A stretch of DNA of 64,000 bases from an uncultured Bacteroidota bacterium (GCA_903927505.1 CAIYNF010000128.1:39636-103635); one strand, 5' to 3'; shown: positions 11,613 through 51,110, numbered from the stretch's first letter. Program-made: numbers and translations. Notes: a model not told the origin generated them from the letters alone.

Positions 11613-14234
11613 ATGAAATTTCTACTTTCTTATATACTATTGGCTTTTGTGTTTTTCGGTTCGAACCAAAGCTATGCCATCAATGCACCAGTTAATAATA
11701 GCCCTGTAAATGGATCGTCTTTCAGTAAATTTGATATTTTTATATATGTAAATGCCGTAACAGGGGCAAAGGGTTACCAATTTCAAATTGATACCCTTAG
11801 TAGTTTCAATAGTTTAGGTTTAATTAAGGATACAACCCAAAACCAGTATGTTTATTCGCCTTTATTAAAAATTGGAAAAACCTATTTTTGGCGTGCCCGT
11901 GCTTACTCCGGAGCAGATACTTCGGTATGGTCTTCCACATGGTCTTTTACTACCACAAATGCTACGCAAACTTTAAACTCTCCAGCAAACAATACCACAG
12001 GTCCAATTGTACTTTTACGGCCTATGGGCGCTAGCAGTGTGGCAAGTATAAATTATATCATAGAAGTTGATACTAACATCAATTTAAATTCACCCATCAA
12101 GGTAGTTAGAACCCAAAACAATACCAATTTTACAGATTCTGTTCTGTTTGGATATGGTAGAAATTTATACTGGCGCGCCAAATCTTACAGCAGTTTTGGC
12201 GATACCTTCCAATGGTCGGGTATATATAAATATACCATCCATACACAACCTACATTAAATGGAAACCCAAGCACCCTATTAATGGTTGACCCAAAAATAA
12301 CTCCCAATTGGACCAATGTTGGTTTGTCTAGCATTCACCTGCAGTTAGATACTACTATGAGTTACAATACTTCGCGATTAATAGACCATATTATTCCTCC
12401 AGGTTACAATGCCGATACCATTTATAATTTATTTTTTGGCAAGGATTACTTCTATCGCATTCGTTGCGAATACCAAGGAAAAGTATCAACCTGGTCGTTT
12501 AATCAACCAATTAGGGTAAAGACAAATGGGTATTTAAGTTCGCCTTCAAATGGCTCAACAGTATACGGACTAAGCACAAACTTCGGATGGAGTGCCTTAA
12601 ATGGAACAAAATACCATTTCATACTATTTGGTGATTCTGCCGAAACAATTGTGCTAAAAGATACCATTACCAATATTGGAAATTACAGCTATAAAAATGA
12701 ATTAAAGTTAAATAAATGGTACCACTATAAGGTAACGTATTTTCACGATTTAGATGCAGCAAGCACGCTCACAGCTTACTTTAAAACCTATACTGGCATG
12801 GTAAATATTGGCGCACCCTATGCCAATGCTACCAATGTTTCTGTTCGCCCTCGTTTAAATTTTAGGAAGCAAACTTGGGGCACAGGTTATATTATGGAAA
12901 TAGATACTGGTGCTGCTTTTACAAGTACTCACAGTCCTTTTTATATTCGTATTATAGATAGTTTTAATTACGACGGATCTTATTACCATTACAAGGATAC
13001 TTCTTTGTTATACGGACAAAAATATGTTTGGCGTGTAGCTGCTTTAAAAGGAACAGATACGGCCGAAGCAACAACCAATAATTTTACAACAGCGGCTTTT
13101 CCTTTTAATTATTATCCTCCTAACAATTATATTGGAACAGGAACTTCTACCAATGGTTTGGTAACTGGAATTACTGGCTCTACTTGGATTCAATGGGAAT
13201 TAGATTCATCCCTTAATTTTAATTCTCCACTTAGAATTAGTGGCACAGATCCGCATATTCCAGATGATTTTACCCCAGCCTATGTTGGGCTTAATTTTAG
13301 TCCCGACTTAAATTTTGAAACCAAATATTATTGGCATGCGCGCTGCATCAATGCTGTGGATACAGGGAATTGGGGCAATGCATTTAACTTTTTAACAACC
13401 CAACCTGTTTGGGCTATAAATCCAATAAATGGTGCAAGCAATATTGCTACCAGTGTGAATTTACAATGGGGCGTTCAAGGAAGTACATCTGAATTAGTTT
13501 TCCAATACCAAGCAAGCAAAGATTCAAATTTTGTTGGTACACCTATTATGTCGCTTGCCGCCAATGCCTCTCCAAACGCCACTATTAGCTGTCAATATGC
13601 AACTAAATACTTTTGGCGTGCCCGTGCAATTAATGAAAAGGATACCAGCAATTGGTCGCCCAATTTTAATTTCACCACACAAAATCCTCCCACCATTGCA
13701 AGGCCTCAATTGTTATTACCTGCAAATGGTGCCAGCAATGTAAAGCTAGGAAATATTACGCTGGTTTGGTCGGCAGTAAGCAATGCATTTAGTTATGATG
13801 TACAAGTTTCAGACACATCAGACTTTTCAACAATTATTGCTTCAGGAACAACGGCAGGTACCTCAAGTATTTTTACAGGAGCTACCAAACAAAAAACATA
13901 TTATTGGCGTGTGAGAGGAAAAATAGTAGATTATGCAGGGCAATGGGCATTTCCTTATTTGTTCGAAACAGGCGTTCCTATAGGAATTTCAGAAGTTAAT
14001 AAACCAATGAATGACCTAATTTTTCCAAATCCAACAAATCATCAATTTACTATTCAAAGTGCTGGAAACTTTTCGTTTCAAGTGTTTTCAAATGAGGGTA
14101 AATTGGTTTTCGGTTCGAGCCAAAACCGCGATGAAGCCATTGTTGATACTGATAATTGGGCAGCAGGACTCTATATAATTTGCATTGAAAAGGAGGGTGT
14201 AAAAAGCAAGCAAAAAATGCAAGTAATAAAATAA
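11613..14234 (+). CDS. secreted multi-repeat (fibronectin-III-like) protein with a T9SS C-terminal sorting domain
   Basis: Signal peptide MKFLLSYILLAFVFFGSNQSYA. Roughly eight ~100-aa repeats share Y(F/Y)WR(A/V)R...W..F(T)T. The C-terminal ~80 aa (FPNPTNHQFTIQ...LYIICIEKEGVKSKQKMQVIK) matches the Por/T9SS CTD pattern. Confidence 0.7.
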   Translation: MKFLLSYILLAFVFFGSNQSYAINAPVNNSPVNGSSFSKFDIFIYVNAVTGAKGYQFQIDTLSSFNSLGLIKDTTQNQYVYSPLLKIGKTYFWRARAYSGADTSVWSSTWSFTTTNATQTLNSPANNTTGPIVLLRPMGASSVASINYIIEVDTNINLNSPIKVVRTQNNTNFTDSVLFGYGRNLYWRAKSYSSFGDTFQWSGIYKYTIHTQPTLNGNPSTLLMVDPKITPNWTNVGLSSIHLQLDTTMSYNTSRLIDHIIPPGYNADTIYNLFFGKDYFYRIRCEYQGKVSTWSFNQPIRVKTNGYLSSPSNGSTVYGLSTNFGWSALNGTKYHFILFGDSAETIVLKDTITNIGNYSYKNELKLNKWYHYKVTYFHDLDAASTLTAYFKTYTGMVNIGAPYANATNVSVRPRLNFRKQTWGTGYIMEIDTGAAFTSTHSPFYIRIIDSFNYDGSYYHYKDTSLLYGQKYVWRVAALKGTDTAEATTNNFTTAAFPFNYYPPNNYIGTGTSTNGLVTGITGSTWIQWELDSSLNFNSPLRISGTDPHIPDDFTPAYVGLNFSPDLNFETKYYWHARCINAVDTGNWGNAFNFLTTQPVWAINPINGASNIATSVNLQWGVQGSTSELVFQYQASKDSNFVGTPIMSLAANASPNATISCQYATKYFWRARAINEKDTSNWSPNFNFTTQNPPTIARPQLLLPANGASNVKLGNITLVWSAVSNAFSYDVQVSDTSDFSTIIASGTTAGTSSIFTGATKQKTYYWRVRGKIVDYAGQWAFPYLFETGVPIGISEVNKPMNDLIFPNPTNHQFTIQSAGNFSFQVFSNEGKLVFGSSQNRDEAIVDTDNWAAGLYIICIEKEGVKSKQKMQVIK
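11658..11667. repeat. GGTTCGAACC palindromic decamer (exact)
   Basis: Coding, frame 1: it encodes FGSNQ in the signal peptide of the FN3-repeat cargo gene. Confidence 0.9.
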
Positions 14235-17290: not shown

Positions 17291-18040
17291 TTACTTCAGA
17301 AGTAGCTCAATTTCATCCCAATTCACTACGTTCCAAAAGTTAGTTACGTAAGCCCCACGCTTATTTTGGTGCTTTAAATAGTAAGCATGCTCCCATAAAT
17401 CAATTCCTAAAATCACTTTTGGTATCATTTCTGGCGTTTTTCCGGCATCCATTAATGGATTGTCTTGGTTGCTAGTAGCACTAATTTTTAACTGATTATT
17501 TTGAAGGATTAACCATGCCCAACCCGAACCAAAAACACCCAATGATACCTTTTCAAATGTGCTCTTAAAAGTTTCAATGCTGCCAAATGAAGCAATAGCT
17601 AACTTAGTAAAATTTGGGCCCATTTGTGTTCCTGTTTTCATCGATTTCCAAAAGAAACTATGGTTCCAATGTCCACCACCATGGTTTCTAATAGCGGTTT
17701 TTACAGCACTTGGCAAACCAGATAGGTTCAATAATAATTCATCTAAACTCTTGCCTCTCAAGCTTGGTTCTTTATCAATTGCTTCATTTAATTTATTCAC
17801 ATAGGTTTGGTGATGCTTTGAATAATGTATCTCCATTGTTTGTGCATCAATAAAAGGTTCCAATGCATAATAATCATAGCCCAATGGAGCTAATTCAAAC
17901 CTTCCGTTGTTTGGCATAAGGCTTCCATCCAACTTTGTAAAGGTGCTAACAAATATATCTTTTGCATTTGCGCCCAAACCAAGCACTCCTAAACCTAAAA
18001 GTGTAGAGTTGCGTATAAATTCTTTTCTATTGCTTTTCAT
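17291..18040 (-). CDS. Fe/Mn superoxide dismutase with a Tat-type signal peptide
   Basis: SOD motifs HHQTYV and DLWEHAYY. N-terminus MKSNRKEFIRNSTLLGLGVLGLGANA with an RxFxR-like twin-arginine region. Confidence 0.85.
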   Translation of the reverse strand: MKSNRKEFIRNSTLLGLGVLGLGANAKDIFVSTFTKLDGSLMPNNGRFELAPLGYDYYALEPFIDAQTMEIHYSKHHQTYVNKLNEAIDKEPSLRGKSLDELLLNLSGLPSAVKTAIRNHGGGHWNHSFFWKSMKTGTQMGPNFTKLAIASFGSIETFKSTFEKVSLGVFGSGWAWLILQNNQLKISATSNQDNPLMDAGKTPEMIPKVILGIDLWEHAYYLKHQNKRGAYVTNFWNVVNWDEIELLLK

Positions 18041-18044
18041 CAGC

Positions 18045-19928
18045 TTAATTATTTTGTATGATTAATTTCTTACTCATCAAAGGTACCTCATCTAAGAGCA
18101 ATTGGTATAAATATAATCCTGTAGTAAATTGGCTTGTATTTAACTCATATTGGTGCAAGCCTTCCGCACTTTGTGGCATATCTTGTGTGTGCACCACCTT
18201 GCCATTTATGTCCCTTATTACAACTTTTACATTTTCGGTTCGAACCAATTTAAAAGCTATGGTAACACTTTCTGCTGCCGGATTTGGCCAAGCTGTGAAC
18301 AAATGATTTTTACTTTCAATGGTGTTTGTTTCAATACCAGTTGCGTATTTTAATTTCATTTGATAATAACCGCCTTTCATAGCATTTAAAGGCTTGTAAG
18401 AGGTTTTGTTATTATTGCTTTTTGCTTCCAAGTAATAATATAAGCTATCACTTCCTTGTAAATTTGCATTGGCAATATCACCAATCCAATAACCACTGCT
18501 ATCTGTTAAGTTACTTTTATTCCAAGCGCTTGCATTGTTTTTTACCCAATAACAACTGGCTTCCTTAATGCCACTTTTATTATCAATCTTTGCTATTATA
18601 TGGTAATTATTCAATGCTGGAACTATTCCATCAACACTTGGATGCCAAAAACGGATTGGATTTTCAACCGGAATTTGCATGGTAATACAATGAATGGCAC
18701 CACCCAATGGCGATAAATCTCTGCTATCAATTGGAACAATTTTATACCCAGGGAAAGTTTGCTTATAAAATGCCATTATTCTTCTGTGTTGTGCTGCATT
18801 CCCGGTAAATCCATCGTAATAGGAGGGAAAAATAAAACTACCATTTACCGTTAAGCCATTGATAAAATTACGCGCGTCATTGTTCAACTGCGCGCAACTT
18901 TTAGTGGTATGTAAGCCATTGTCGTCTGTTGGATGTTCTACTCGTATAATCCTAAAAGGCCTGTTGTACGTGCTTTTAAGGGTACTTAAATACTGGTAAT
19001 TGTCTTCAATAATCTTTTTGTCGTTAGCAGTAATTTCAGATGGATATTGCGCCACAATTAAAGATTGCTCATCTATTAATTTCACATATAAATCTATATG
19101 CCCAGTGCCGCCATCACATTTTAATGAAACTAAATTTGTAAGGTTTGGTGTATTAAATAGTTTTAACAAAGTATCATTGGTTTGTTGGGTGCTCCAAGGA
19201 CTGGTATGAACGCCAACTTCGGCGTTTATTGATGGAATTACATCACTGTAAAATAAACGTCCAAATCCATCTGCCATTAAATTTCCTCCTTCGGCATTCA
19301 AGGAAGTTTCATAGTTTTCATAACCCATAGCGGCTGCCAATTGAGAAGGGAATAAATTATCAAAATCCCTTCCAGCATAATATTTCATATCCACAAAGCC
19401 AATACTATCTAAGTTTTTCGAGTAAAATGCCATAGGGCCGTAATCCCTCGTCCACCAATCATCTCCGTTGTTTACAATGAACTTGTAATTTGTTAATGGC
19501 ATGCCACGCGTTACCATATTGTTTTTCACAAGCGTAGTATCACTGTTTTTTAAAACTTTAATCCAAACAGTACACTCTTGTTGTATGGCATTTGCCAACT
19601 GCGCAGAAACATCTGCATAAACAGATGTAAGATCCATACCAGAAGGGTTTCCGTTAATGTCGTAATCAAACGACCAGCTAATTGCCACCGCTTGAGATTC
19701 TTCAAACTCGCCAGGAGAAATAATACCTAATGGCATCATTTTATTGAGGTTTCTTTTAAATAAATTCTCGTTTTCAGCTGGGTTGCGCATGGCTTTTTCT
19801 TGCGCTGTTTGGTAAGCAGGTTTCTTTGCTGGCCTTTGGGTTTGGGCATCGCTGGAAGAACGCATTCCAAATGCCAAAAGGGAAAGGCATATACCTTTTA
19901 AAACTAATTTACTATTCATATGATACAT
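18045..19928 (-). CDS. agmatine deiminase / Porphyromonas-type peptidylarginine deiminase family enzyme with a T9SS C-terminal sorting domain
   Basis: Family signatures WWTRDYGP and C-terminal catalytic GGAIHCITMQIP. Signal peptide present. The last ~80 aa (FTAWPNPAAESVTIAFKL...LYLYQLLLDE...) match the T9SS CTD pattern. Confidence 0.72.
   Translation of the reverse strand: MYHMNSKLVLKGICLSLLAFGMRSSSDAQTQRPAKKPAYQTAQEKAMRNPAENENLFKRNLNKMMPLGIISPGEFEESQAVAISWSFDYDINGNPSGMDLTSVYADVSAQLANAIQQECTVWIKVLKNSDTTLVKNNMVTRGMPLTNYKFIVNNGDDWWTRDYGPMAFYSKNLDSIGFVDMKYYAGRDFDNLFPSQLAAAMGYENYETSLNAEGGNLMADGFGRLFYSDVIPSINAEVGVHTSPWSTQQTNDTLLKLFNTPNLTNLVSLKCDGGTGHIDLYVKLIDEQSLIVAQYPSEITANDKKIIEDNYQYLSTLKSTYNRPFRIIRVEHPTDDNGLHTTKSCAQLNNDARNFINGLTVNGSFIFPSYYDGFTGNAAQHRRIMAFYKQTFPGYKIVPIDSRDLSPLGGAIHCITMQIPVENPIRFWHPSVDGIVPALNNYHIIAKIDNKSGIKEASCYWVKNNASAWNKSNLTDSSGYWIGDIANANLQGSDSLYYYLEAKSNNNKTSYKPLNAMKGGYYQMKLKYATGIETNTIESKNHLFTAWPNPAAESVTIAFKLVRTENVKVVIRDINGKVVHTQDMPQSAEGLHQYELNTSQFTTGLYLYQLLLDEVPLMSKKLIIQNN
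18237..18246. repeat. GGTTCGAACC palindromic decamer (exact)
   Basis: Coding, minus strand: it encodes LVRTE in the T9SS CTD of the PAD-family gene. Confidence 0.9.
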
Positions 19929-19984
19929 TGATGTTAATTACTCTGTTTGAATTGCTATTTTCGCAATAAATAATATTCGAACTT

Positions 19985-20917
19985 ATGACAAGTCGGGAAA
20001 CTTTCAAAGTATACCAAAGTGGAAAATTGCCATTTATTATAAATGACCTAAAAAGGAGGGAAGAACCGCTGAAAGTATTGATGTGTAACCCCGAACATTT
20101 TGACATTATAGATGTAAAAAATATCCACATGGAAGGAATGGCTTCCTCATTGAATAAGAATAAAGCCATTCAACAATGGGATGATTTAAAATCAATATAC
20201 CAAAAACTTGTCGTTGAAGGATTGCTAAAAGAATTGAAAGTTATTGATGGGGCAAAAGGCTGTGAGGACATGGTTTTTTGTGCCAACCAGAGCTTTCCTT
20301 ATTTGACTAATAGCAACGAAAAAACAGTTTGGATGAGCAAAATGCGTCATGCATCTCGCCAGAATGAAGTGCCGTTTTTTGAGGATTTTTTTAAAAACTT
20401 GGGCTATACCCCTAAGCATTTTAAGCAAACAGATTTATTTGAAGGTATGGGCGATACCATTCCACATCCCGGAAAACAATTGCTTTATGGTGGTTATGGG
20501 CATCGCAGTAAAACAGATGCATACGAGGAATTAAGCAAAGAATTAAACGTTCCAATTATTGCCTTAGAATTAATCAACGAAAACTTTTACCACCTCGATA
20601 CTTGTTTTGTGCCACTCTCTGAAACCCAAGTAATGCTATGCAGAGAAGCATTTACTGCAGAAGGATTTGCTTTAATTCAACAATGCTTTGATGATATTTT
20701 TGAAATCCCAATGGATGAAGCCATTCAAACATTTTGTTTAAATGCCCATGTGGTAACAAATAATTATACAAATCAAAAAGCTGCAATTATCCAAGTCGGA
20801 AGCACCGCTGCCAAAGATGCTTTGGAGAAATGCGGATATAAAATTTACGAAGTGGAAACAAGTGAATTTATGAAATCTGGCGGCAGCGTATTCTGTATGA
20901 AAATGATGTATTATTAA
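19985..20917 (+). CDS. amidinotransferase-superfamily hydrolase (DDAH / CtlX-like)
   Basis: 310 aa. The C-terminal KSGGSVFCM resembles the DDAH catalytic-Cys motif (xxGG(V/S)xCM). No signal peptide. Confidence 0.55.
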   Translation: MTSRETFKVYQSGKLPFIINDLKRREEPLKVLMCNPEHFDIIDVKNIHMEGMASSLNKNKAIQQWDDLKSIYQKLVVEGLLKELKVIDGAKGCEDMVFCANQSFPYLTNSNEKTVWMSKMRHASRQNEVPFFEDFFKNLGYTPKHFKQTDLFEGMGDTIPHPGKQLLYGGYGHRSKTDAYEELSKELNVPIIALELINENFYHLDTCFVPLSETQVMLCREAFTAEGFALIQQCFDDIFEIPMDEAIQTFCLNAHVVTNNYTNQKAAIIQVGSTAAKDALEKCGYKIYEVETSEFMKSGGSVFCMKMMYY

Positions 20918-20931: not shown

Positions 20932-22851
20932 CTAATTATACAAACGCAAGCGCAAGCCAAAGCGCAAAGCCTTTACCGGCAGGGGATAAGAAGGGGTATA
21001 ATAATAGCCTGAATTAATCCAATCCATATTCATGTGTTCATATTTAACAAAAATAGTGGCTGTCATTACCTGCCCGGTAAAAAACACATCAAACATTGGG
21101 TAATTGCCAATGCGGGTTTGGTCTTGCAAATAAAATGCCCGCGCACTTGGGTTATAGGCATTTCCAAAATAGCTGGTATTGTAAAATAACTCAGCACCCA
21201 ATTGAAAATTCAAGGCCTTTCTAAATAAATTTCCATTGATATAATACCTCAAATTAGCACTCATTTCTGGCAAGCGCATAATAGCCAAATTGCTTTTTTG
21301 AAAGATCAATTTGTTTTCAAAATAAAACCATCCAAATTGAAATGTTTTAGCAGCCTCTAAAGTATTTATCAATAAAATATCACTGCTTTGAATAGGCTTC
21401 ACTTCTTTGCCATAATAAACCCAATTAGCTATTACATATTGGTTAAACTGCAAAGTGAAATTATGCCTAAAAGCTTTGGTACCCATACCCACACGCCATT
21501 GTGTGACATTTATTTTTGAAAACTTATTTGTCCAACTAAAGGGTGCCGATCTATAATAAGTAAAAGTATAATCTGGCTCAAAAAGTTGGTTATAAAAACC
21601 ACCAACCAAATCTAATTTCTTAAATAATATTTTGGCATCACCACCTAGTTTAAAATCATTTTGGTTATAACCACTCATGCAATAAGAACCTGCCAATTTT
21701 AAACCCAAATTATTTTCAGTTTTAGGAATGCGCTCCATTTTTGCTTCACCCCAAACATTGTTATAGGAATTGCTTAAACCCATTTGTTGCACCTGAATGT
21801 TTTTATGGGAAATAGCAAACTCAATAAAGCTTTGCTGAAACGCATTGCTCTTGGTCCAATAGGCATAGGCAAACCTATTTAAGAGTGTTTTACTTGCTAT
21901 AGAATCATAGAAAATGCCTGTGGTATCAATGTTTGCTGTTGGAAATAATATGCTATCCTTGTTGCCTTTTGGATTGTCAAAAAAGAATGCGTCTTGGTCG
22001 TAGCGAATTGTATGAGACAAGAATCCCAACCTACTCAAAACATAACTGGTGTCTTCATTTTTTACCACCGTTTCCATTTTGCCTAAATAATAATATTGCT
22101 TGGCATAAAGGGTTTGATTTTTGAACCTGCTCTGGCAATTATATAATCTTACGGGTGCTGCTTTATTAGATCCACGCAAGGTTTCAAATAAAGAATCTCC
22201 TTTTAATCCGCCACTCTCATCTAAAACGCCTCTGTTCCAAATAATATTGGCCAATATTCCATAGCGTTTGTTTTTAGATTGGTAATTGGAATTGATATTG
22301 GTAAAATAACCACTGGTGTATTGCCTAGAATAAAAGCCACCAGATGTTACCCTGTCGTAATCTACACCAATATTAAATCGCGGCGAAAAGTTCATTGCGT
22401 ATTTTGCAGAGAACAAAAGCAATTCCTTTTGTCCTTGGGTATAAGAGAAATCAGCATAGGGTTTTTTAGTTTGGTAATAGCGTGTTTCTTGTGGTGTTTT
22501 ATAATAAATCTGATAAGGATTAAAAACCAATACAAAGTCGGTATTTTTATTCCATTCAAATAACAAACTTCTTCCCGGTGTGCCAATATTTCCTAAGTCT
22601 TGAAAGACGCTATTTTTTTTATAATAAGGGTGGTATATTTCATTGCGCCTAATAACGGTATCCTCATAAACCATAGGTAAATTGCGGTCTTGCGCATATT
22701 CCGTAATATACAAACTTGGGTATTCTTTCGTTTTTATGCTATCGGTTTGCGCCAGTATTGGGTTCGAACCAAAACCGACTAATAGTAAAAGGAAATAAGA
22801 ATACTGTTTCAAATATATTTTGTTTATTGTTTCAATATTTTCTGAACCCAT
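20932..22851 (-). CDS. outer-membrane beta-barrel-like hypothetical protein
   Basis: 639 aa with a signal peptide (…YFLLLLVGFGSNPILAQ) and Tyr/Gly-rich amphipathic segments. An alternative TTG start at 22812 would give MKQYSYFLLLLVGFGSNPILAQ and remove the overlap with the upstream gene. Confidence 0.45.
   Translation of the reverse strand: MGSENIETINKIYLKQYSYFLLLLVGFGSNPILAQTDSIKTKEYPSLYITEYAQDRNLPMVYEDTVIRRNEIYHPYYKKNSVFQDLGNIGTPGRSLLFEWNKNTDFVLVFNPYQIYYKTPQETRYYQTKKPYADFSYTQGQKELLLFSAKYAMNFSPRFNIGVDYDRVTSGGFYSRQYTSGYFTNINSNYQSKNKRYGILANIIWNRGVLDESGGLKGDSLFETLRGSNKAAPVRLYNCQSRFKNQTLYAKQYYYLGKMETVVKNEDTSYVLSRLGFLSHTIRYDQDAFFFDNPKGNKDSILFPTANIDTTGIFYDSIASKTLLNRFAYAYWTKSNAFQQSFIEFAISHKNIQVQQMGLSNSYNNVWGEAKMERIPKTENNLGLKLAGSYCMSGYNQNDFKLGGDAKILFKKLDLVGGFYNQLFEPDYTFTYYRSAPFSWTNKFSKINVTQWRVGMGTKAFRHNFTLQFNQYVIANWVYYGKEVKPIQSSDILLINTLEAAKTFQFGWFYFENKLIFQKSNLAIMRLPEMSANLRYYINGNLFRKALNFQLGAELFYNTSYFGNAYNPSARAFYLQDQTRIGNYPMFDVFFTGQVMTATIFVKYEHMNMDWINSGYYYTPSYPLPVKALRFGLRLRLYN
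22761..22770. repeat. GGTTCGAACC palindromic decamer (exact)
   Basis: Coding, minus strand: it encodes GFGSNP in the signal peptide of the OM protein. Confidence 0.9.
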
Positions 22852-24236
22852 TGGAATTCGCCAGCCTGAATCAAAGCAAAATACATGCCTCCTTTCAAAA
22901 TTGCCGTTTCGGCCTCAAAGGTAGCGCCATATAAAATTTTATGCAATACCAATTCTCCATTGCTAGTATATAGTTTAAGTTCAGCTTGTTCAATTGTTTT
23001 AGGAATGTTGTTGAGGTGAATTTTGTCGTTAAATGGGTTCGGCCAAATTTCAATTTCAGGTTTTACTTCGTATCTGTGAATGCCTGTTAAGCTAGAATCT
23101 ACCTTTAACATAAATATGCCTTCACCCATGTCACTCACTGCTATATTTCCAGATGGCAAATAAGGATAAACTCCCCAACAACCTTTATAACCATCATAAG
23201 AACTAGGTGGCCAAGCAGATGTATGGTAGTACCCAGCAATACTTGGCTTACTTTTATCGCTCAAATCAAAAATATAAAAGCCATCGTGGTAATAAGACAC
23301 ATAAGCAAAATTGCCAATCCAATAAGCATTGTGCGCAGTTGCCTTTGGGTTCGACCTAAATAAACTCACCAATTTAGGTGCATTGAAATCTGAAATGTCA
23401 AATAGCTTGATGGCTAATCCTCCAGGTATTTCATCAGTGAAAATAATGTTCTTGCCTGTTGCATCTAGCATGCTGCTATGGTTGTAACCGTTTTCCGGGT
23501 ATTCTTTAATAAAATTAATAAGCCTTTGCTTTTTTAAATCTCTTAAATCAAAAATCCATAAACCTTGGTATTCTACAGAACAATAGGCCGTATCGTTTCT
23601 TACATAAGCCTCATGTACATTTCTAAAAAGCGGACCACCATCTGCATAAGTAGGAACCTCCAAACGGCCAATCCAAATGGGATGTTCCGGGTTTTCCAAT
23701 CCCATTATATCCAATGCAACTACACCGCCTAATTTCAAACGATTAATTGCCAAATACAAACGTTTACTCTTTGCATCTATAAAAATACTATGGGTATTAA
23801 CCGACATTGAATCACTGTCGTAAACCTTGTAAACAGAATCGGGGAGGTATTGCAAATCAAAAACCTGTAAGCTGCCTTTATTGCCATTATCGCTCACACA
23901 ATAGGCGTAATGGGAATAACATTCATAATCTCTATTTACAACGTTCTTGGCCTTTCCATCTGCCACATCGCAAACTTTTATTTGTGTTGGATTGCTTACA
24001 TCTAAAAAATAAATACTGTCTGTACTACCAGCAATAATATATTCCTTCTTGCTTATTGAATCATAGTAACCAGTAAGATCGTTCCAAATTTGATAGCCGT
24101 TTAATCTTGGCAACTCAGGTTTATTCCAATGTCCTAAAAGTGAAATTTTTTCAGAAATATTTTGGGTAGAACCAAGCTTGCTGAAAAATAAGAATGCAAG
24201 TAAGAGATAAAACGATATGTGTTTTTTTTGCTGCAT
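22824..24236 (-). CDS. secreted beta-propeller-like protein (LVIVD / 'choice-of-anchor B'-like) with a T9SS CTD; paralog 2
   Basis: Start taken at the internal Met (MQQKKHISFYLLLAFLFFSKLGSTQ), which makes a TAATG stop/start overlap with the upstream paralog. It shares many blocks with the neighbouring gene (IWNDLTGYYD, YxHYAYCVSD, LQ(V/I)FDLQYLPDS). C-terminal WPNPF...ILKQ matches a T9SS CTD. Confidence 0.62.
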   Translation of the reverse strand: MQQKKHISFYLLLAFLFFSKLGSTQNISEKISLLGHWNKPELPRLNGYQIWNDLTGYYDSISKKEYIIAGSTDSIYFLDVSNPTQIKVCDVADGKAKNVVNRDYECYSHYAYCVSDNGNKGSLQVFDLQYLPDSVYKVYDSDSMSVNTHSIFIDAKSKRLYLAINRLKLGGVVALDIMGLENPEHPIWIGRLEVPTYADGGPLFRNVHEAYVRNDTAYCSVEYQGLWIFDLRDLKKQRLINFIKEYPENGYNHSSMLDATGKNIIFTDEIPGGLAIKLFDISDFNAPKLVSLFRSNPKATAHNAYWIGNFAYVSYYHDGFYIFDLSDKSKPSIAGYYHTSAWPPSSYDGYKGCWGVYPYLPSGNIAVSDMGEGIFMLKVDSSLTGIHRYEVKPEIEIWPNPFNDKIHLNNIPKTIEQAELKLYTSNGELVLHKILYGATFEAETAILKGGMYFALIQAGEFQWVQKILKQ

Positions 24237-25627
24237 TAATATTTGAAAATCCTTTTTCTTAAAATCTGCCCGTCGGCGCCACACTCAATAATATAAAGGC
24301 CTTGCGGCAAATGCGACAAGTCTATTTCACTTGTATTTGCATCAACTGGCACATTTATTTGAATATCTCCCATGGTGTTCAAAAGGGTAATTGCATCTAA
24401 ATGAATTCCATCATAATTCACTTTTATTTTTCCTGAACATGGGTTTGGGTAAACAGTAATTTCTGCTTGTGGTTTTGTAATTTCTGTTGATCCAAGCAAT
24501 GCACTATCAATTTCAAAAACGAAAATTCCTGCCGTTAAATCACTTGCAATAATATGTTTGCTGGGTAGGTAGGGATAAATTCCCCAACAACCTTTAAACC
24601 CTCCATAAACCTCAGGCGAAACAGGATGTGTATCAAACCAAGCTGCCTTAATTGGATTGCTAGGATCTGTAATATCATAAACTACTACTCCGTCATGGTA
24701 TGCAGAAACGTATGCAAAATTACCATACCAATACGCATTGTGAGATGTTGTGTAGGTATTGCTGTTAAACTGACTAATAAACTTTGGATTACTAAGACTA
24801 TTGATGTCAAAAATCTTAATATCTAATCCTGCGTTCTCATCGGTAAACATAATTTTCTTACCAGTTTTGTCTAGCCAACTGCTGTGGTTGTAACCTTGAT
24901 CTGGATAGGAGTTAATACTACCAATTAATCGTTGATCTGCAAGATTTCTCAAATCAAAAATATACAAACCTGCTTCCCCACAACTTAAATAAGCCGTATC
25001 GTTTTTTGCAAACATTTCATGCACCAAGTTAAAAAGTGGAAATCCTCCCGACTTAGTAGGAACAGTTAATTCAGCCAAAAATGTAGGATGAACTGGGTCA
25101 CTGATAGAAAGAATATCCATGGCAGAAAATCCTCCTGGTTTTGAATTGCTGCTCATGTACAAGCGCGAACTAACAGAATCAATAAAAATGGTATGCGTAT
25201 AAGTTCCAAGGGCATTGCTATGGTATACTTCAGGAAATGAATCGGGGAGGTATTGCAAATCAAAAATCTGTAACGCACCTATGCCACTTCCTTGATCAGA
25301 AACACAATAAGCATAATGTTGGTAGGTTTCATAATCGCGATTTTTTGCAAAAATAGAAGCACCTGCAACCGCTGCTATTCTTTTCATGTTCACCGCATCC
25401 GTAATATCAAAAACATAAATACTATCCGTGCCTCCACAAATAATATACTCTCTGTTCTTAATAGGATCGTAATAACCCGTCAGGTCGTTCCAAATATCTG
25501 TACCGTCTACTTTGGGCAAAGAAGGATTGTTATAAGAGGCCAATTTGCGCATGCGGTATGCATCTTGCGCGTTTACGCTTAGATGCAAAAGCATAAAAAA
25601 CAAGAAGGTATAGAGAAACTTTTTCAA
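24236..25627 (-). CDS. secreted beta-propeller-like protein with a T9SS CTD; paralog 1
   Basis: The ORF track extends to 25729 and overlaps the upstream gene by 98 nt. An in-frame TTG at 25627 gives the textbook signal peptide MKKFLYTFLFFMLLHLSVNAQ. C-terminal VYPNPCSGKIKV...ILRKRIFKY matches a T9SS CTD. Confidence 0.62.
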   Translation of the reverse strand: MKKFLYTFLFFMLLHLSVNAQDAYRMRKLASYNNPSLPKVDGTDIWNDLTGYYDPIKNREYIICGGTDSIYVFDITDAVNMKRIAAVAGASIFAKNRDYETYQHYAYCVSDQGSGIGALQIFDLQYLPDSFPEVYHSNALGTYTHTIFIDSVSSRLYMSSNSKPGGFSAMDILSISDPVHPTFLAELTVPTKSGGFPLFNLVHEMFAKNDTAYLSCGEAGLYIFDLRNLADQRLIGSINSYPDQGYNHSSWLDKTGKKIMFTDENAGLDIKIFDINSLSNPKFISQFNSNTYTTSHNAYWYGNFAYVSAYHDGVVVYDITDPSNPIKAAWFDTHPVSPEVYGGFKGCWGIYPYLPSKHIIASDLTAGIFVFEIDSALLGSTEITKPQAEITVYPNPCSGKIKVNYDGIHLDAITLLNTMGDIQINVPVDANTSEIDLSHLPQGLYIIECGADGQILRKRIFKY

Positions 25628-25631
25628 TGTA

Positions 25632-26747
25632 TTAGCCTTTAAAATTGTACCGGTAAGTATAATGTATTTTTGTAGTCTTTGCGCCCAAAGCTTCAAACAA
25701 GCTGTGCATTTTGGGGTTAAAATCGCCAATCCACGACAATTCTGCTTGGGTATATTGCGGATGATTCTTTTTCATTTCTTCATAAAACTTAATAATCATT
25801 CCTGTTTCCAAACCCAAATTTTGATAGGCAGGAATAACACCAAAAACAATTCCTCGAACCCTGTTAACACCACCAAAATGGAGTAAGTACAAGAATTTTA
25901 ATTTCGACCAAATATTCATTTTTCCATTCAAATGTTTGAAAATTTGGTTTACATCCAATACATTTACTATAAAACCTGCGGGCTCATTATTTGCATAGGC
26001 AAACCAAATAGCTTCTTCAATCATAATTGGTTTTAGTGAAATTAATGTGCTCTCTATTTTATCTTTTGTAATGGCTATAAAATCTGCTCGGCTCGCCCAA
26101 GCCTTATTATAAATATGTATAAAATCTGATGCGTATTTGTCCAATTCTTTCATCTTAAAATGCTCGAACCTGTAGGCAGGATTGGCCAATACACGGGAAG
26201 AGAGTTTAAAAAAACGTTCCGACTTAAACTCATCAATGCCAATTTCTGAGGTGGTTTGTTCAAAGTTTTTTACAAAGCCATATGACTCAAACAAATGCTG
26301 GTAATAGGAGAAATTGAAATTTTCTTGGTAGGAAGGATTTTTAAATCCGGAAACCAATAAGCCCCAATATTTATCTTTTTCTCCAAAATTGATTGGGCCA
26401 TCCATATAGCTGCAATGATTGGTTCGAAGCCAATCTTCAGCTGTATTAAATAATAGATGGGCGGCATTGACCTTGTCTACGCACTCAAAAAAACCCATTC
26501 CACCTGATAGTTTGCCGGATTCATTTTTATAAAATGCAGCAATTCTGCCAATAGTTTTTTCTTCTGAAATTAATAACCAACGCTTGGCATCGCCCAAATC
26601 ATAAAATTTATTTTGATTTGGATCAAAAACAGTTTCAATATCTTTATCCAATGGGCAAATCCAATCTGGATGATTGGCATACAATCGCTTTGGAAAATCA
26701 ATGAATTCCTTTTGCTCTTTTTTACTAAATACTTCTTTGACTTGCAT
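25632..26747 (-). CDS. hypothetical protein, possibly a GNAT/FemAB-fold acyltransferase-like protein
   Basis: 371-aa cytoplasmic ORF. The family assignment rests on overall pattern only. Confidence 0.3.
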   Translation of the reverse strand: MQVKEVFSKKEQKEFIDFPKRLYANHPDWICPLDKDIETVFDPNQNKFYDLGDAKRWLLISEEKTIGRIAAFYKNESGKLSGGMGFFECVDKVNAAHLLFNTAEDWLRTNHCSYMDGPINFGEKDKYWGLLVSGFKNPSYQENFNFSYYQHLFESYGFVKNFEQTTSEIGIDEFKSERFFKLSSRVLANPAYRFEHFKMKELDKYASDFIHIYNKAWASRADFIAITKDKIESTLISLKPIMIEEAIWFAYANNEPAGFIVNVLDVNQIFKHLNGKMNIWSKLKFLYLLHFGGVNRVRGIVFGVIPAYQNLGLETGMIIKFYEEMKKNHPQYTQAELSWIGDFNPKMHSLFEALGAKTTKIHYTYRYNFKG

Positions 26748-31639: not shown

Positions 31640-32614
31640 ATGAAAAAATTAATTCTTCTACCATTGGTTATTTTCTGTTTAATACCTTTCATAGGTAAAG
31701 CACAAGACGTAATGATCTTAAGATTTAAGGCCGATTCACTCAAAGTGAAAATCATTGAAATTGGTACTGATGAAATTAAATACAAGCTTTGGCCAGTTGA
31801 AGAAAGTATGCCAATAATGGTTGAAAGCAAAGACCGCGTAAAACGTATTATTCTTGCCAATGGAACTGTAATGCGTTTCTCTGAAAATGAATTTATGAAC
31901 GCCAATAATTACAGCAGCCAACGCAAAATGGCTGTTAAAATAGATATGTTCTCATTTTTATATGGAAGTACTTCTGTTGCCTTTGAGCAATCAATTGAAC
32001 CAGGCAGAAGTTGGGAAGTGGGTGTTGGCTTTATTGGCATGGGGTCAAACCTAAATAATGGTGGCGATTACAATTCTCGTTCTGGCGCATTCTTTAAAGG
32101 TGGATACAAGTTTATTAACCAACCAGATTATTATTTAAAAGGCATGCGTTACGCGCATGTAATGAAGGGCGCTTATATAAGACCTGAATTGGCTGTTAAT
32201 TTTTACAATACCATTGTAACAGGTACTTCTTATTCTTCAAGTCTCAATACAACTACAAATATGTATGATATTGTTAAAGAAAATAGAGAAACCAAGTATA
32301 GAAATTCAGCATTTGCCTTTTTATTGAATTTTGGCAAGCAATGGGTGTTTTCAGATATTTTCTTAGTAGATGCTTTTGCAGGAATTGGTCTAGGAATTGG
32401 AGATGAGAAAAAAGTTTCTTCAACTGTTACATCTATAACTAAAAGCTCCTCTCAATACAATCCATATTATTATGGTAGTGGCTCTTCTTACGATTATAAC
32501 CATTACAACCCAACTGGAACAGGATTTGCAACCAGCACGGATGGCACAGTTTATTTGGCCGGTTCTTGTGGATTAAAATTAGGCATCCTTATTGGTGCTA
32601 AAAAAATGGATTAG
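31640..32614 (+). CDS. secreted hypothetical protein, paralog A1 (N-terminal ~70-aa domain plus a putative OM beta-barrel)
   Basis: Signal peptide MKKLILLPLVIFCLIPFIGKAQD. Shares conserved blocks with the next two genes (QRKMA(V/I)K(I/M)DM, YYLKGMRYAH, FGKQWVFS). Confidence 0.5.
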   Translation: MKKLILLPLVIFCLIPFIGKAQDVMILRFKADSLKVKIIEIGTDEIKYKLWPVEESMPIMVESKDRVKRIILANGTVMRFSENEFMNANNYSSQRKMAVKIDMFSFLYGSTSVAFEQSIEPGRSWEVGVGFIGMGSNLNNGGDYNSRSGAFFKGGYKFINQPDYYLKGMRYAHVMKGAYIRPELAVNFYNTIVTGTSYSSSLNTTTNMYDIVKENRETKYRNSAFAFLLNFGKQWVFSDIFLVDAFAGIGLGIGDEKKVSSTVTSITKSSSQYNPYYYGSGSSYDYNHYNPTGTGFATSTDGTVYLAGSCGLKLGILIGAKKMD

Positions 32615-32627
32615 TTTCTTGTAAAGC

Positions 32628-33545
32628 ATGAAAAAACAATATATTCTTTTCTTCTTTTTTATTGCTCTTTTTGCTGCAAATAGTCAAGCGCAAGATAAAA
32701 TGGTATTGCGTGGAAGTGTTGATACACTTCAGGTTAAAGTAATTGAATTAGGGGTAAATGATATTCGATACAAAACTTGGCCTGTAGACGATAACATGCC
32801 CATGATGGTGGAGAAAAAGGAGAGAATTAAAAAGATTATTTTTGAAAATGGCACCATCATGAAATTTGCTGAGGACGAATTTTCTAACCAAGAAAATTAT
32901 GTAAACCAGCGCAAAATGGCCATTAAAATGGATATGTTAAGTCCTGTGCGTAAAGTGTTTTCAGGTTCATTTGAATATTCGCTTAAACCTGGTATGAGCG
33001 CAGAAATAGGAGTAGGAGTGATTGGTATTTCTTCTTATGATAATTTCTTTTACTCCTTCTCAGAATCAGATGGTGGATTTATACGTTTGGGACTAAAATT
33101 AATACGTACACCAGATTATTACCTCAAAGGAATGCGCTATGCGCATATATTAAAAGGTGGTTACCTACGACCAGAATTAATCTTTTTACGCCACGATAAT
33201 TTTGGATATAGCAGAGATTATTGGGGCAATGGCAGTGCACCTGATAAACAAGTGATAAAAGTTACCGGCTACGCCTTTATGCTCAACTTTGGCAAGCAAT
33301 GGGTTTTCTCCAATATCTTTTGCGTAGACCTTTTTACAGGTATTGGTATTGGCAAAAAGAAATGGGACTATTACTACAACGGTAATTTGGTTCCTAGCTC
33401 AGGTAACAATTATTTGGGATCATTAACTGGATTCGACGTAGGTGGCTTTGGCTTTGCAAATTTCTCCCCAGAAAGCAATAGCGTTGCGCTTTCTTATCAA
33501 GCAGGTTTAAAAATTGGTTTGTTAATTGGCGGACAAGCCAAATAA
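32628..33545 (+). CDS. secreted hypothetical protein, paralog A2
   Basis: Signal peptide MKKQYILFFFFIALFAANSQAQD and the same conserved blocks as A1. Confidence 0.5.
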   Translation: MKKQYILFFFFIALFAANSQAQDKMVLRGSVDTLQVKVIELGVNDIRYKTWPVDDNMPMMVEKKERIKKIIFENGTIMKFAEDEFSNQENYVNQRKMAIKMDMLSPVRKVFSGSFEYSLKPGMSAEIGVGVIGISSYDNFFYSFSESDGGFIRLGLKLIRTPDYYLKGMRYAHILKGGYLRPELIFLRHDNFGYSRDYWGNGSAPDKQVIKVTGYAFMLNFGKQWVFSNIFCVDLFTGIGIGKKKWDYYYNGNLVPSSGNNYLGSLTGFDVGGFGFANFSPESNSVALSYQAGLKIGLLIGGQAK

Positions 33546-33589
33546 TTTAATTCAATTTCATTTTTCAAATATTTCTTTATCTTTCCATA

Positions 33590-34534
33590 GTGAAACAGGT
33601 AAAGATTGGTTTCTTATTTTTCTTTCTATTGCTTACCCAATCCTCTTGGGCGCAAGACCTCATTATCCTTCATCCAAACAGAGATACCCTGCACGTTAAA
33701 GTACTACAAATTGCTGCACGTGAGGTTTATTACACCACTACAGATAGCCAAAGTCGGTTCGACCCAAAACAGATTAAAACAGATTTAGTAGCCAGAATTG
33801 TATATGCAAACGGTACTGTAATTAGGTTAATGGAAGGACAAACAATTGAAGCTAACTTTTTAGGAAACAGAAATTTTGCCATAAAAATAGATCCTTTCAT
33901 CCCTTTATATGGCAGTACCTATTTAGCCATTGAAAGTAGTTTAGCTGCCAGGAGAAGCATGGAAATTGGCATTGGTGTTATTGGTGCTGGTTTGGCGCAA
34001 GATGCATACCTAAATAGGAAAGGGGCGTTTGCGCGTTTTGCCTATACCTTTTATTTAACCACTTTTAGACCCAAGCTTATATTAAAGCAACATCTTTTAA
34101 GTGGTTGGTATTTGCGACCATCAATTATTGCCAATTATTTTGAACTCAATGAAGTTTTTTTTAATACCAGCGCTTATCAATACATCAACGGGCAATCAAA
34201 ATACACCATTAGAAATATGGATAAACGTTTTGCTCGGGGAAGTGCCGGAGTGCTTTTGAGTTTAGGAAAACAATGGGTATTTAAGAACAGAATTTCTCTG
34301 GATTTGAGCTACGGATTAGGCCTGGGATATGGCTATCAAAAAGTAATCAATGAAACCATTTCTTATACAGAATATTTAGGCTATGGTTGGCAGGATAAAA
34401 TAGTGGAAGTTTATGACGTGGGCGCGGGAACCGGCATTCATATTAACCACAATAATAAATTTGCTTTTGCCATGGAAGGTGGCGTAAGAATGGGGTTTTT
34501 AATTCACCGCAATAAAAAAGCAAAGGCCTTCTAA
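33590..34534 (+). CDS. secreted hypothetical protein, paralog A3 (more divergent)
   Basis: Signal peptide plus ANGTVIRL and LGKQWVFKN blocks that line up with A1 and A2. Confidence 0.45.
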   Translation: MKQVKIGFLFFFLLLTQSSWAQDLIILHPNRDTLHVKVLQIAAREVYYTTTDSQSRFDPKQIKTDLVARIVYANGTVIRLMEGQTIEANFLGNRNFAIKIDPFIPLYGSTYLAIESSLAARRSMEIGIGVIGAGLAQDAYLNRKGAFARFAYTFYLTTFRPKLILKQHLLSGWYLRPSIIANYFELNEVFFNTSAYQYINGQSKYTIRNMDKRFARGSAGVLLSLGKQWVFKNRISLDLSYGLGLGYGYQKVINETISYTEYLGYGWQDKIVEVYDVGAGTGIHINHNNKFAFAMEGGVRMGFLIHRNKKAKAF

Positions 34535-43547: not shown

Positions 43548-44528
43548 ATGGTTTCCAAACGTCTTGTTATTTGGCAGTCCATATTGTTTGCCCTTCTGGG
43601 TATTGTACTCTTGTATTTTAGTTTTAGAAAAACAGATTTTAATGCACTATGGCAAGTTATTCAACAAGGAAACCATTGGGTAATTTTACCCGTATTTTTT
43701 GTTTCAGTTTGGGTAATGGTGGCAAGAAGTTTGCGTTGGAAAATTCTCTATAAAGGGGCAAATGTACATGTTCCTTTTAATGTCTTATTTGCATCACTTG
43801 CAAGTGGCTATTTGGTTAATTTTGTAGTACCCCGCTTAGGTGAAATTACGCGTGCATTAATTGTAAAGCGCGCGCTTAATGTACCAGTAAATACAAGCCT
43901 AAGCACAATTTTGTTTGAGCGCATTACCGACCTTATTTGCTTGGCTATGCTCCTTGCACTTGCCTTTGGTTTTGAATTTATAAACCATGGTACTTTATTG
44001 GCTCATTTTACCCATGGCGTAAATCTACTCAGTGCTAACAAAATATTGCTATTCTTTGTGTTTGTTCTGTGTTTTGCTGCCTTCTATTTCTGGTTAAAAA
44101 AACGCAATGATAAAATAAGTACCTGGATCAAATCATTAATTGAAACAAGCATTCAACTCACGCAAATGAAAAATAAATGGCAATTTGTTTTTCATACCAG
44201 CAGCATTTGGATTGGCTTTTACTTAATGACCTACTTGTGGTTTTTTATGTTTGAAGATGCCGCCCAATTAAGTGCCTACGATGCCTTTCTGATTATGGCA
44301 TTAGGAGTGGTGGCGCGTACTTTGCCCATACAAGCGGGTTCTGCAGGGGCCTATCATTTTGTGGTAAGTCAAGCCTTAGCGCTACTTGGAATAAACCTAC
44401 TTACCGGCAATGCCTTGGCCATTGTTATCCATGGTTTTCAGACAATTTTAACGCTGCTATTTGGATTTTGCGCTTATCTTTGGCTACTTTATTATAACAA
44501 ACAAAATGCAGAAAAGATCCTTGTTTAG
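43548..44528 (+). CDS. lysylphosphatidylglycerol-synthase-TM-region-like (flippase-like, UPF0104) membrane protein
   Basis: 326-aa polytopic protein whose N-terminal pattern (…SLRWKILY…) resembles PF03706 proteins. Starts 2 nt after the previous stop. Confidence 0.5.
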   Translation: MVSKRLVIWQSILFALLGIVLLYFSFRKTDFNALWQVIQQGNHWVILPVFFVSVWVMVARSLRWKILYKGANVHVPFNVLFASLASGYLVNFVVPRLGEITRALIVKRALNVPVNTSLSTILFERITDLICLAMLLALAFGFEFINHGTLLAHFTHGVNLLSANKILLFFVFVLCFAAFYFWLKKRNDKISTWIKSLIETSIQLTQMKNKWQFVFHTSSIWIGFYLMTYLWFFMFEDAAQLSAYDAFLIMALGVVARTLPIQAGSAGAYHFVVSQALALLGINLLTGNALAIVIHGFQTILTLLFGFCAYLWLLYYNKQNAEKILV

Positions 44529-51070: not shown

Positions 51071-51110
51071 TCTTGTTTTTTTTAGTAAAATATTTCAAAC
51101 ATATTTTTAT

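Follow-up and report, generated by a model that had tools for sequence, protein, structure and literature searches.

A recurrent divergent gene pair in Bacteroidota encoding a predicted T9SS-exported enzyme with the domain plan of PPAD and an ArgZ-like putative arginine hydrolase

Two adjacent, divergently oriented genes in a 64,000-nucleotide (nt) stretch of DNA from an uncultured Bacteroidota bacterium (GCA_903927505.1, CAIYNF010000128.1:39636-103635; hereafter, the window, in which positions are counted from the first letter) encode a 627-amino-acid (aa) relative of the secreted peptidyl-arginine deiminase of Porphyromonas gingivalis (PPAD), predicted to leave the cell through a type IX secretion system (T9SS), and a 310-aa, apparently cytoplasmic protein that most resembles the arginine dihydrolase domain of ArgZ and AgrE. 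With moderate confidence, we read this locus as encoding, in a conserved divergent arrangement, two active guanidino-group hydrolases that would act on arginine in different compartments. The reading draws on the domain architecture of the two proteins, the conservation of their catalytic residues, the placement of the exported protein in a clade of its own, and the recurrent linkage of the two genes.

RESULTS

A predicted exported enzyme with the domain plan of PPAD

Both window genes are intact and are read outward from a short shared spacer (Table 1); the open reading frames (ORFs), motifs, spacer, and inverted repeat described in an earlier reading of the DNA (hereafter, the sequence-only reading) are all physically present where it placed them. 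The 627-aa protein carries WWTRDYGP at aa 158-165 and GGAIHCITMQIP at aa 409-420 within a Pfam match to PF04371 (PAD_porph) that spans aa 72-420 with an E value of 4.7e-37. Its C-terminal sorting domain (CTD) is recognized both by PF18962, Por_Secre_tail (aa 547-624; 45.7 bits against a cutoff of 27), and by the NCBIfam model TIGR04183 (34.6 bits against a cutoff of 23), and the family profile also matches the solved CTD structure 8glj_D. This domain displays the motifs PNP, D-x-x-GK, G-x-Y, and KKLII, and P548, N549, P550, G576, G604, and Y606 are invariant across the family alignment (A1).

By inspection, the N terminus (MYHMNSKLVLKGICLSLLAFGMRSSSDA, followed by QTQ) reads like a Sec signal peptide succeeded by Gln, with a hydrophobic core (LVLKGICLSLLAFG) ahead of the A/Q junction, and it provides the N-terminal Sec signal (MNSKLVLKGICLSLLAFGMRSSSDA, followed by Q) expected of T9SS cargo. 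The AlphaFold2 (AF2) model of the protein, which has a predicted local distance difference test score (pLDDT) of 79 overall, has a helix spanning aa 6-23 and then a disordered linker that runs to about aa 62, and its Ig-like region is all-beta with a pLDDT of 80-93. Five further ORFs of the window contain PF18962, indicating that the host makes use of T9SS (coordinates listed for them are 11613-14234, 22824-24284, 24236-25729, and 44461-45699); no genes of the T9SS machinery were seen within the window. From these features we infer that the 627-aa protein is exported by Sec and T9SS and actually secreted.

Table 1. Features of the divergent gene pair, with positions in the window
Feature	Position	Strand	Basis
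Gene for 627-aa T9SS-sorted PAD_porph-family guanidino-group deiminase (predicted)	18045..19928	-	ORF; Pfam and NCBIfam; best PDB match PPAD
Predicted Sec signal peptide, aa 1-28, cleavage between SDA and QTQ	19845..19928	-	Inspection of sequence
Catalytic domain, aa 66-425	18654..19733	-	Alignments to PPAD
Ig-like beta-sandwich domain, aa 426-530, homologous to PPAD IgLF domain	18339..18653	-	PPAD alignment; regional HMM; model
Type-A T9SS CTD, aa 547-627	18048..18290	-	PF18962; TIGR04183
Divergent intergenic spacer, 56 nt, must hold both promoters	19929..19984	.	ORF boundaries
ATTGC-N7-GCAAT inverted repeat	19951..19967	.	Present; statistically unremarkable; not conserved
Gene for 310-aa cytoplasmic stand-alone homolog of the ArgZ/AgrE arginine dihydrolase domain	19985..20917	+	PDB 6jv0 match; NCBIfam; Foldseek

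Relationship to PPAD and to agmatine deiminases

In a single-sequence search of solved structures, the top match to the 627-aa protein was P. gingivalis PPAD (E value of 1.4e-17), in an alignment extending across the PPAD Ig-like domain, while agmatine deiminase (AguA-type) chains had E values of 2e-9 to 3e-4. A profile built from 23 family members scored PPAD at 147 bits (E value of 6.6e-42) over the catalytic and Ig-like domains and AguA-type chains at no more than 68 bits. Foldseek searches with the AF2 model also placed PPAD first, with a target-normalized TM score of 0.82 over about 470 columns covering both domains, whereas AguA structures match the model over the catalytic domain only. 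A hidden Markov model (HMM) of the Ig-like region alone detected PPAD at 41 bits (E value of 2.8e-13) and yielded 0 matches to AguA-type proteins. The agmatine deiminase equivalog models score the protein far below their cutoffs (TIGR03380, 63.4 bits against 381.8; NF010070, 62.7 bits against 483), and membership in the AguA equivalog is rejected on this basis. The architecture that the sequence-only reading had assigned, that of PPAD rather than of a cytoplasmic agmatine deiminase, is thus borne out.

The catalytic residues of PPAD are Asp130, His236, Asp238, Asn297, and Cys351; Arg152 is the main binder of the C-terminal carboxylate of the substrate, with significantly reduced activity in an Ala mutant, Arg154 is a second carboxylate binder, and Tyr233 and Ile234 are specificity residues (PMC4893104). 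The five catalytic positions correspond, in order, to D162, H277, D279, N357, and C414 of the 627-aa protein, and this pentad, along with W159 (PPAD W127) and R187 (PPAD R154), is invariant in 118 of 118 homologs. At the position of Arg152, to which A185 aligns without gaps, the 118 family members have D (72), P (13), S (11), E (11), or A (7) and never R or K, and the positions of Tyr233 and Ile234 are occupied by G274 and T275, both invariant in the family. Within the PPAD clade, by comparison, R152 is present in 25 of 25 sequences, R154 and I234 in 22 each, and Y233 in 19. Of the PPAD substrate-binding residues, which the sequence-only reading had proposed as a check, the equivalent of Arg154 is therefore retained, while those of Arg152, Tyr233, and Ile234 are not. 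Because R187 is invariant and AguA-type proteins have W, F, or S at this position, the pocket points to a substrate bearing an alpha-carboxylate, that is, to arginine rather than agmatine, and R187 is the best available hint as to such a substrate.

We also constructed a neighbor-joining (NJ) tree, with 300 bootstraps, of the catalytic domains of the window family, the PPAD clade, and AguA-type sequences recovered from plasmids. Three clades emerge, supported by 298 of 300 bootstraps for the window family and by all 300 for each of the other two, and the mean catalytic-domain identity of the window family is 24% to the PPAD clade and 23% to the AguA-type sequences. The suggestion that the protein might group with PPAD itself does not hold up, in that its family is separate from both PPAD and AguA. 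Orthology to PPAD is rejected, given the separate clade, the identity of about 24%, and the lack of Arg152, Tyr233, and Ile234; common ancestry with PPAD would be argued solely by the Ig-like domain and CTD that the two have in common. The 627-aa protein appears to combine the architecture of PPAD with a different substrate pocket and to belong to a separate, uncharacterized clade.

Two functional assignments can be weighed against these data. As a genuine PPAD-type peptidyl-arginine deiminase, the protein would citrullinate C-terminal arginines of proteins and peptides, including the surface proteins of its own cell. The shared domain plan, the rank of PPAD as best structural match, the conserved pentad and R154, and a gene for a tail-specific protease immediately downstream in 18 related loci all speak for this function, but we consider it quite unlikely in view of the separate clade, the 24% identity, and the replacement of R152, Y233, and I234 of the true PPAD clade; moreover, two true PPAD-clade loci (L099 and L100) have neither an ArgZ-like gene nor an arginine deiminase (ADI) gene as a neighbor. 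As a secreted agmatine deiminase, as its database name would have it, the protein would produce N-carbamoylputrescine outside the cell. It is a member of PF04371, carries an AguA-like N-terminal PGEFEESQAV-x-SW motif and a DGGTGHID-type motif, and has a catalytic-domain identity to AguA-type proteins about equal to that to the PPAD clade, but the low equivalog score (63 bits against 382) and the invariant R187 make this assignment very unlikely, and neither aguB nor a CN-hydrolase gene was found in the scanned window ORFs or in the 25 most frequent neighbor clusters of related loci, where linkage is instead to enzymes of arginine and ornithine metabolism.

The partner most resembles the ArgZ/AgrE arginine dihydrolase domain

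The arginine dihydrolase of ArgZ and AgrE converts L-arginine to L-ornithine, 2 NH3, and CO2, and the 310-aa product of the divergent gene appears closest to this domain. The protein has a nonhydrophobic N terminus, a GGSVFCM motif near its C terminus (aa 299-305), and Pfam matches to PF19420 (DDAH_eukar; 44.6 bits against a cutoff of 23) and PF02274 (ADI), and it has no fused C-terminal ornithine-cyclodeaminase-like domain. Among solved structures, the N-terminal arginine dihydrolase domains of ArgZ (Sll1336) and AgrE (Alr4995) match it best, with E values of 4e-40 (PDB accession number 6jv0) to 3e-37; DDAH reached about 2e-3 in the same search. The top Foldseek match to its AF2 model (pLDDT of 88.5) is likewise the N-terminal domain of ArgZ, with a target-normalized TM score of 0.89 and 31% identity, whereas DDAHs are 13-17% identical and have Foldseek E values 10 orders of magnitude weaker.

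Among NCBIfam models, Arg_dihydro (NF052232) ranks first with 167.5 bits, below its cutoff of 450, and NF052231 gives 163.2 bits against 1025. The dimethylargininase models NF045659 (Mycobacterium-type), NF045660, and NF045658 score 152.3 bits against 300, 30.6 against 340, and 27.9 against 450, respectively, and no CtlX model is among the matches. The key residues D40 (in HFD), N101, H203 and D205 (in HLD), and C304 are invariant in 25 homologs (alignment A2). The family has 2662 matches, with lengths of 291-346 aa. N101 and C304 align with Asn71 and Cys264 of ArgZ, whose roles we take from the titles of PDB entries and the visible N71S and C264S mutant chains.

The sequence-only reading had described this partner as DDAH/CtlX-like. 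The likeness to DDAH persists at the superfamily level, and identity as a classical DDAH is rejected, since all three DDAH equivalog cutoffs are missed. CtlX, a putative citrullinase, has Asn at both guanidino-binding Asp positions, in FPNN and HTN motifs (Price et al. 2022, PMC9007349). The 310-aa protein keeps both of these Asp residues and matches no CtlX model, and this identity is also rejected.

Recurrent linkage of the two genes

The genomic neighborhood of the gene for the exported enzyme (the PAD-like gene) was examined in 80 species-level loci. Its commonest single neighbor is the ArgZ-like gene, which occurs in 26 of the 80 and is always upstream and divergent. Pairing spans PAD-like identities of 96-51% and appears again at 46-39%, and clustering of the PAD-like proteins at 60% identity gives 8 clusters of paired loci only, 16 of unpaired loci only, and 0 mixed clusters. 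Viewed from the other side, by looking up ten ArgZ-like homologs at 55-61% identity, five lie beside a gene for a PAD_porph protein with a CTD (four divergently, some with a signal-peptide ORF of about 170 aa in between, and one in tandem), four lie beside an ArcA-like ADI, and one adjoins neither deiminase. The ArcA-like neighbors are 411-423 aa long, match TIGR01078 with 261-272 bits, align over their full length to solved ADIs, and keep FTRD, H-x-D, and HCM. No arcB or arcC gene was present beside the ArgZ-like and ArcA-like genes in the loci seen.

With 9 of the 10 sampled homologs next to a deiminase of one type or the other, the ArgZ-like gene and its neighbor probably belong to a shared pathway. 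The gene contexts support a functional coupling of the two genes in arginine catabolism, and the functional link that the sequence-only reading had proposed gains support from this conserved synteny. That the adjacency is without meaning, a gene order simply inherited among related freshwater Bacteroidota, strikes us as extremely unlikely: pairing is missing in most lineages, and other neighbors (superoxide dismutase and porin) are conserved among close relatives only, as inheritance would predict, but the pair persists to 39% PAD-like identity while all other neighbors change, one arrangement is in tandem, and the ArgZ-like partner switches between two types of deiminase.

The same contexts bear on whether the two enzymes act in parallel. 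In that case, the 310-aa protein would carry out the whole arginine dihydrolase reaction (Arg to Orn, 2 NH3, and CO2) on imported arginine. The surface enzyme would independently remove NH3 from arginine or arginyl termini outside the cell, whether to scavenge nitrogen or to modify peptides or surface proteins, and the adjacency would reflect only arginine-responsive regulation in common. ArgZ is the closest characterized relative of the 310-aa protein, which retains both guanidino-binding Asp residues, replaced by Asn in CtlX-type citrulline enzymes (PMC9007349), and the equivalent of ArgZ Asn71. An adjoining separate deiminase in 9 of 10 sampled loci, which in 4 of them is a cytoplasmic ArcA-like ADI, is nonetheless unexpected for an enzyme that performs both steps, and we regard the parallel arrangement as doubtful, if a real possibility.

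PAD-like loci that lack the pair have other recurrent neighbors. In 10 of them (L038:3212-4840 and nine other loci), the gene immediately upstream, about 135 nt away and on the same strand, encodes L-glutamate gamma-semialdehyde dehydrogenase (TIGR01236; 792 bits against a cutoff of 614). In 18 (L016-L042; e.g., L018:9887-11884), the gene for the tail-specific (C-terminal processing) protease follows about 26 nt downstream, also on the same strand.

One locus found from the ArgZ-like side (L096:1-8053; GCA_013297755.1, JAAFIH010000006.1) has a codirectional cluster around the ArgZ-like gene. It contains, in order, three Peptidase_S51 genes (the first encoding a T9SS CTD), a DcuC-family transporter, an Asparaginase_2 of the isoaspartyl-peptidase type, the ArgZ-like gene, and an ArcA-like ADI; the ArgZ-like gene starts 2 nt past the preceding stop codon, and the ADI gene follows about 870 nt further on. 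This cluster looks like a T9SS-dependent extracellular locus for the utilization of cyanophycin through beta-Asp-Arg to arginine, an idea that comes from this one ArgZ-like locus. Neither the window nor any of the 80 PAD-like loci yielded a Peptidase_S51, Asparaginase_2, or ArcA-like ADI gene.

The intergenic spacer and immediate flanks

The 56-nt spacer has a GC content of 25%. The sequence-only reading drew attention to its inverted repeat as part of the promoter region, and the repeat is indeed there, but a role as an operator is rejected because it occurs at chance level and is unconserved beyond locus L001. Of 5000 shuffled versions of the spacer, 64% contain an inverted repeat whose arms are 5 bp or longer, and the window as a whole contains 116 perfect inverted repeats of the form 5-N7-5. 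ATTGC-N7-GCAAT is kept only at the same-species locus L001, and other orthologous spacers contain different, unrelated short palindromes.

The distance between the PAD-like and ArgZ-like genes in orthologous pairs is 29-250 nt, or about 620-690 nt where an ORF of about 170 aa intervenes. This ORF, of about 165-177 aa and with a signal-peptide-like N terminus, is present in one Chitinophagales-like clade (L081:5492-6004, L084:5471-6004, L094:4501-4995, and L049:7373-7876, with the equivalent position occupied in L043, L047, and L050-L052), and its end overlaps the start of the ArgZ-like gene by 4 nt in L081 and L084. It has no Pfam or NCBIfam match and is absent from the window.

On the far side of the PAD-like gene, positions 17291-18040 on the minus strand encode a Mn/Fe superoxide dismutase (SOD) with an N-terminal extension of about 45 aa (MKSNRKEFIRNSTLLGLGVLGLGANA...) similar to an export signal of the Tat or Sec type. 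It begins 4 nt past the PAD-like stop codon and is for this reason probably cotranscribed with the PAD-like gene; L001-L004, the closest relatives, are the only loci in which a SOD gene is conserved downstream of the PAD-like gene. A Porin_10 (PF14121) outer-membrane protein is encoded convergently with the ArgZ-like gene (20932-22851, minus strand).

Distribution of the exported family and of the PPAD clade

Searches with the 627-aa protein gave 722 matches at an E value of 1e-5 or lower among 8000 candidates scored. Most of the best 120 are full length, at about 600-640 aa, a few are truncated, and all contain both PF04371 and PF18962; where an entry among them carries a name from its source, that name is "agmatine deiminase family protein" or similar. 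With each species represented by a single genome, a scan detected at least 552 loci with a gene of this family, mostly in metagenome-assembled genomes (MAGs) from freshwater or engineered systems, belonging to Chitinophagales-like Bacteroidota, Cytophagales, Cryomorphaceae, and Kapabacteria/Chlorobiota. The closest among the loci listed, L001, is from a MAG labeled "Bacteroidetes bacterium Jr-11may16-3"; its PAD-like protein is 96% identical to that of the window, and the gene order (carA, enolase, small ORF, SOD, PAD-like, and ArgZ-like) is the same.

Almost all research on PPAD concerns its role as a virulence factor with a link to rheumatoid arthritis. A 2026 review gives PPAD homologs only for Porphyromonas species (PMC13539308). 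A search with the PPAD sequence, reconstructed from an alignment, returned 5009 matches, and the best 120 of them are nearly all PAD_porph proteins at about 50% identity, about 560-690 aa in length (typically about 670-690) and mostly T9SS tagged; the source-named entries among these 120 are environmental Bacteroidales/Bacteroidota MAGs. Judging from these matches, PPAD-like enzymes outside Porphyromonas are not rare, and the view of the sequence-only reading that such an enzyme would be notable is weakened, both by the 5009 PPAD matches and by the occurrence of the window family in at least 552 species genomes. In the two PPAD-clade loci mentioned above, a PorZ-like T9SS component and recO both lie within 2-4 kb.

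Other genes of the window

Searches of 30 additional window ORFs against Pfam turned up nothing beyond housekeeping genes and more T9SS cargo, and they revealed no regulator, transporter, or further arginine gene beside the pair. Beyond the porin gene, positions 22824-25729 (minus strand) hold two tandem paralogous "choice-of-anchor B" proteins (486 and 497 aa) with T9SS CTDs; their ORFs overlap the neighboring ones. An 873-aa protein with a T9SS CTD (11613-14234, plus strand) is made up of many tandem Ig-like modules of about 85 aa with a recurring Y-x-W-R-(A/V)-R/K motif and has, beyond its CTD, a weak Pfam match only (Ig_Rha78A_N, 32.6 bits). ORFs of 912, 374, 520, 324, 305, and 314 aa at 40808-43546 (plus strand), 49946-52673 (minus strand), and 31640-34534 (plus strand) had no Pfam match at an E value of 1e-4 or lower.

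DISCUSSION

Apart from secretion, we infer the substrates of the two enzymes, the order of their reactions, and the co-regulation of their genes, as follows. Since the exported enzyme keeps the full Cys-His-Asp-Asp-Asn machinery and the equivalent of Arg154, its most likely activity at the cell surface would be the deimination of an arginine moiety with a free alpha-carboxylate, be it free L-arginine or a C-terminal or side-chain-linked arginine, to give NH3 and a citrulline moiety. In the cytoplasm, the ArgZ-like enzyme would most likely turn imported arginine, citrulline, or both into ornithine, NH3, and CO2, and the ornithine would then enter the ornithine-to-glutamate route. The best-supported reading is that the pair is probably part of one process of arginine-nitrogen salvage. 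The near-constant presence of a separate deiminase gene beside the ArgZ-like gene would favor a sequential scheme, in which the deiminase makes citrulline and the ArgZ-like enzyme hydrolyzes it, essentially the pathway that the sequence-only reading had suggested; a parallel scheme, in which the ArgZ-like enzyme works on arginine itself, would be just as compatible with the retained guanidino-binding Asp residues.

Several observations weigh against reading the locus as a coupled pair of arginine hydrolases related to PPAD. Pairing is missing in about 60% of assessable PAD-like loci and is thus not obligatory, and neither the window scans nor the neighbor clusters revealed a conserved transporter or regulator beside the pair. 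For the exported enzyme, HMM scores of the catalytic domain alone overlap between the PPAD clade (83-111 bits) and AguA-type sequences (54-92 bits), and the NJ tree is unrooted among its three clades and cannot show PPAD, rather than AguA, to be the sister group. The residue at position 185 is variable and uncorrelated with ArgZ-like pairing, so that substrate inference from the pocket is weak. For the partner, the NCBIfam equivalog cutoffs are missed for every named function, and the presence of both guanidino-binding Asp residues means that it may use arginine, with the two enzymes working in parallel, not in sequence.

A more far-reaching proposal, which we put forward tentatively and think possible rather than likely, is that freshwater Bacteroidota have an arginine dihydrolase route split between two compartments, with a T9SS-displayed deiminase outside and an ArgZ-like hydrolytic citrullinase inside. 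Candidate substrates on the outside would be free arginine, arginine-terminated peptides, or side-chain arginines in cyanophycin and beta-Asp-Arg that cyanobacteria release. In some lineages, the PAD-like enzyme would replace the ArcA-like first step, and PPAD would be a host-adapted offshoot of an ancient class of environmental nutrient-scavenging enzymes.

T9SS-tagged enzymes with the domain plan of PPAD are widespread in free-living Bacteroidota and Kapabacteria, and one large clade, that of the window, appears genomically wired to arginine catabolism. For this class of enzymes, the salvage of extracellular arginine nitrogen would be a testable environmental function; the pair may also supply a candidate for an aerobic step from citrulline/arginine to ornithine that is missing in Bacteroidota, and it may set PPAD in an evolutionary context. 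Should the link be only regulatory, the locus would amount to two ordinary genes of arginine catabolism that bear generic annotations.

Comparison with known systems

From signal peptide through PF04371 catalytic domain and Ig-like domain to type-A T9SS CTD, the 627-aa protein is laid out like PPAD (PDB accession numbers 4YT9, 5AK7, and 6I0X), and the two also agree in the catalytic pentad, W127, and R154. The 627-aa protein differs in its identity of about 19-24%, its separate clade, and its pocket, where G takes the place of Y233 and T that of I234, and where R152 has become A in the window protein and D, E, P, or S across the family. The window host, moreover, is a free-living freshwater bacterium, and its gene is paired with an ArgZ-like gene. 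AguA (TIGR03380; PDB accession numbers 2JER, 3HVM, and 1VKP) belongs to the same Pfam family and has the same catalytic fold; its N-terminal and GH-I-D motifs are similar, and its catalytic domain is about 23% identical to that of the 627-aa protein. AguA, however, is a cytoplasmic, single-domain enzyme of about 340-380 aa, without an Ig-like domain or CTD and with no basic residue at the R154 position, and it is typically encoded near aguB or a putrescine pathway.

The 310-aa protein resembles ArgZ and AgrE (PDB accession numbers 6JUY, 6JV0, and 6LRF) in its nucleophilic Cys, HLD and FD motifs, and Asn71 equivalent, at about 31% identity, but it is a stand-alone protein, bacteroidotal and not cyanobacterial in origin, and habitually encoded beside a separate deiminase gene. 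It belongs with CtlX to the PF02274 superfamily, and the role proposed for it, downstream of arginine or citrulline (citrulline to ornithine), would also be similar, although it has HFD (D40) and HLD (D205) in place of FPNN and HTN. With DDAH it shares PF19420 at the domain level, the fold, and the C-terminal Cys motif, but identity is 13-17%, and the equivalog cutoffs are missed. The ADI pathway (ArcA, ArcB, and ArcC) offers a parallel of another kind, in that an ArcA-like enzyme is the alternative neighbor of the ArgZ-like gene in 4 of 10 loci, suggesting a common logic of a deiminase plus a second enzyme; the neighboring deiminase in the window, however, is not ArcA but an exported PAD_porph enzyme.

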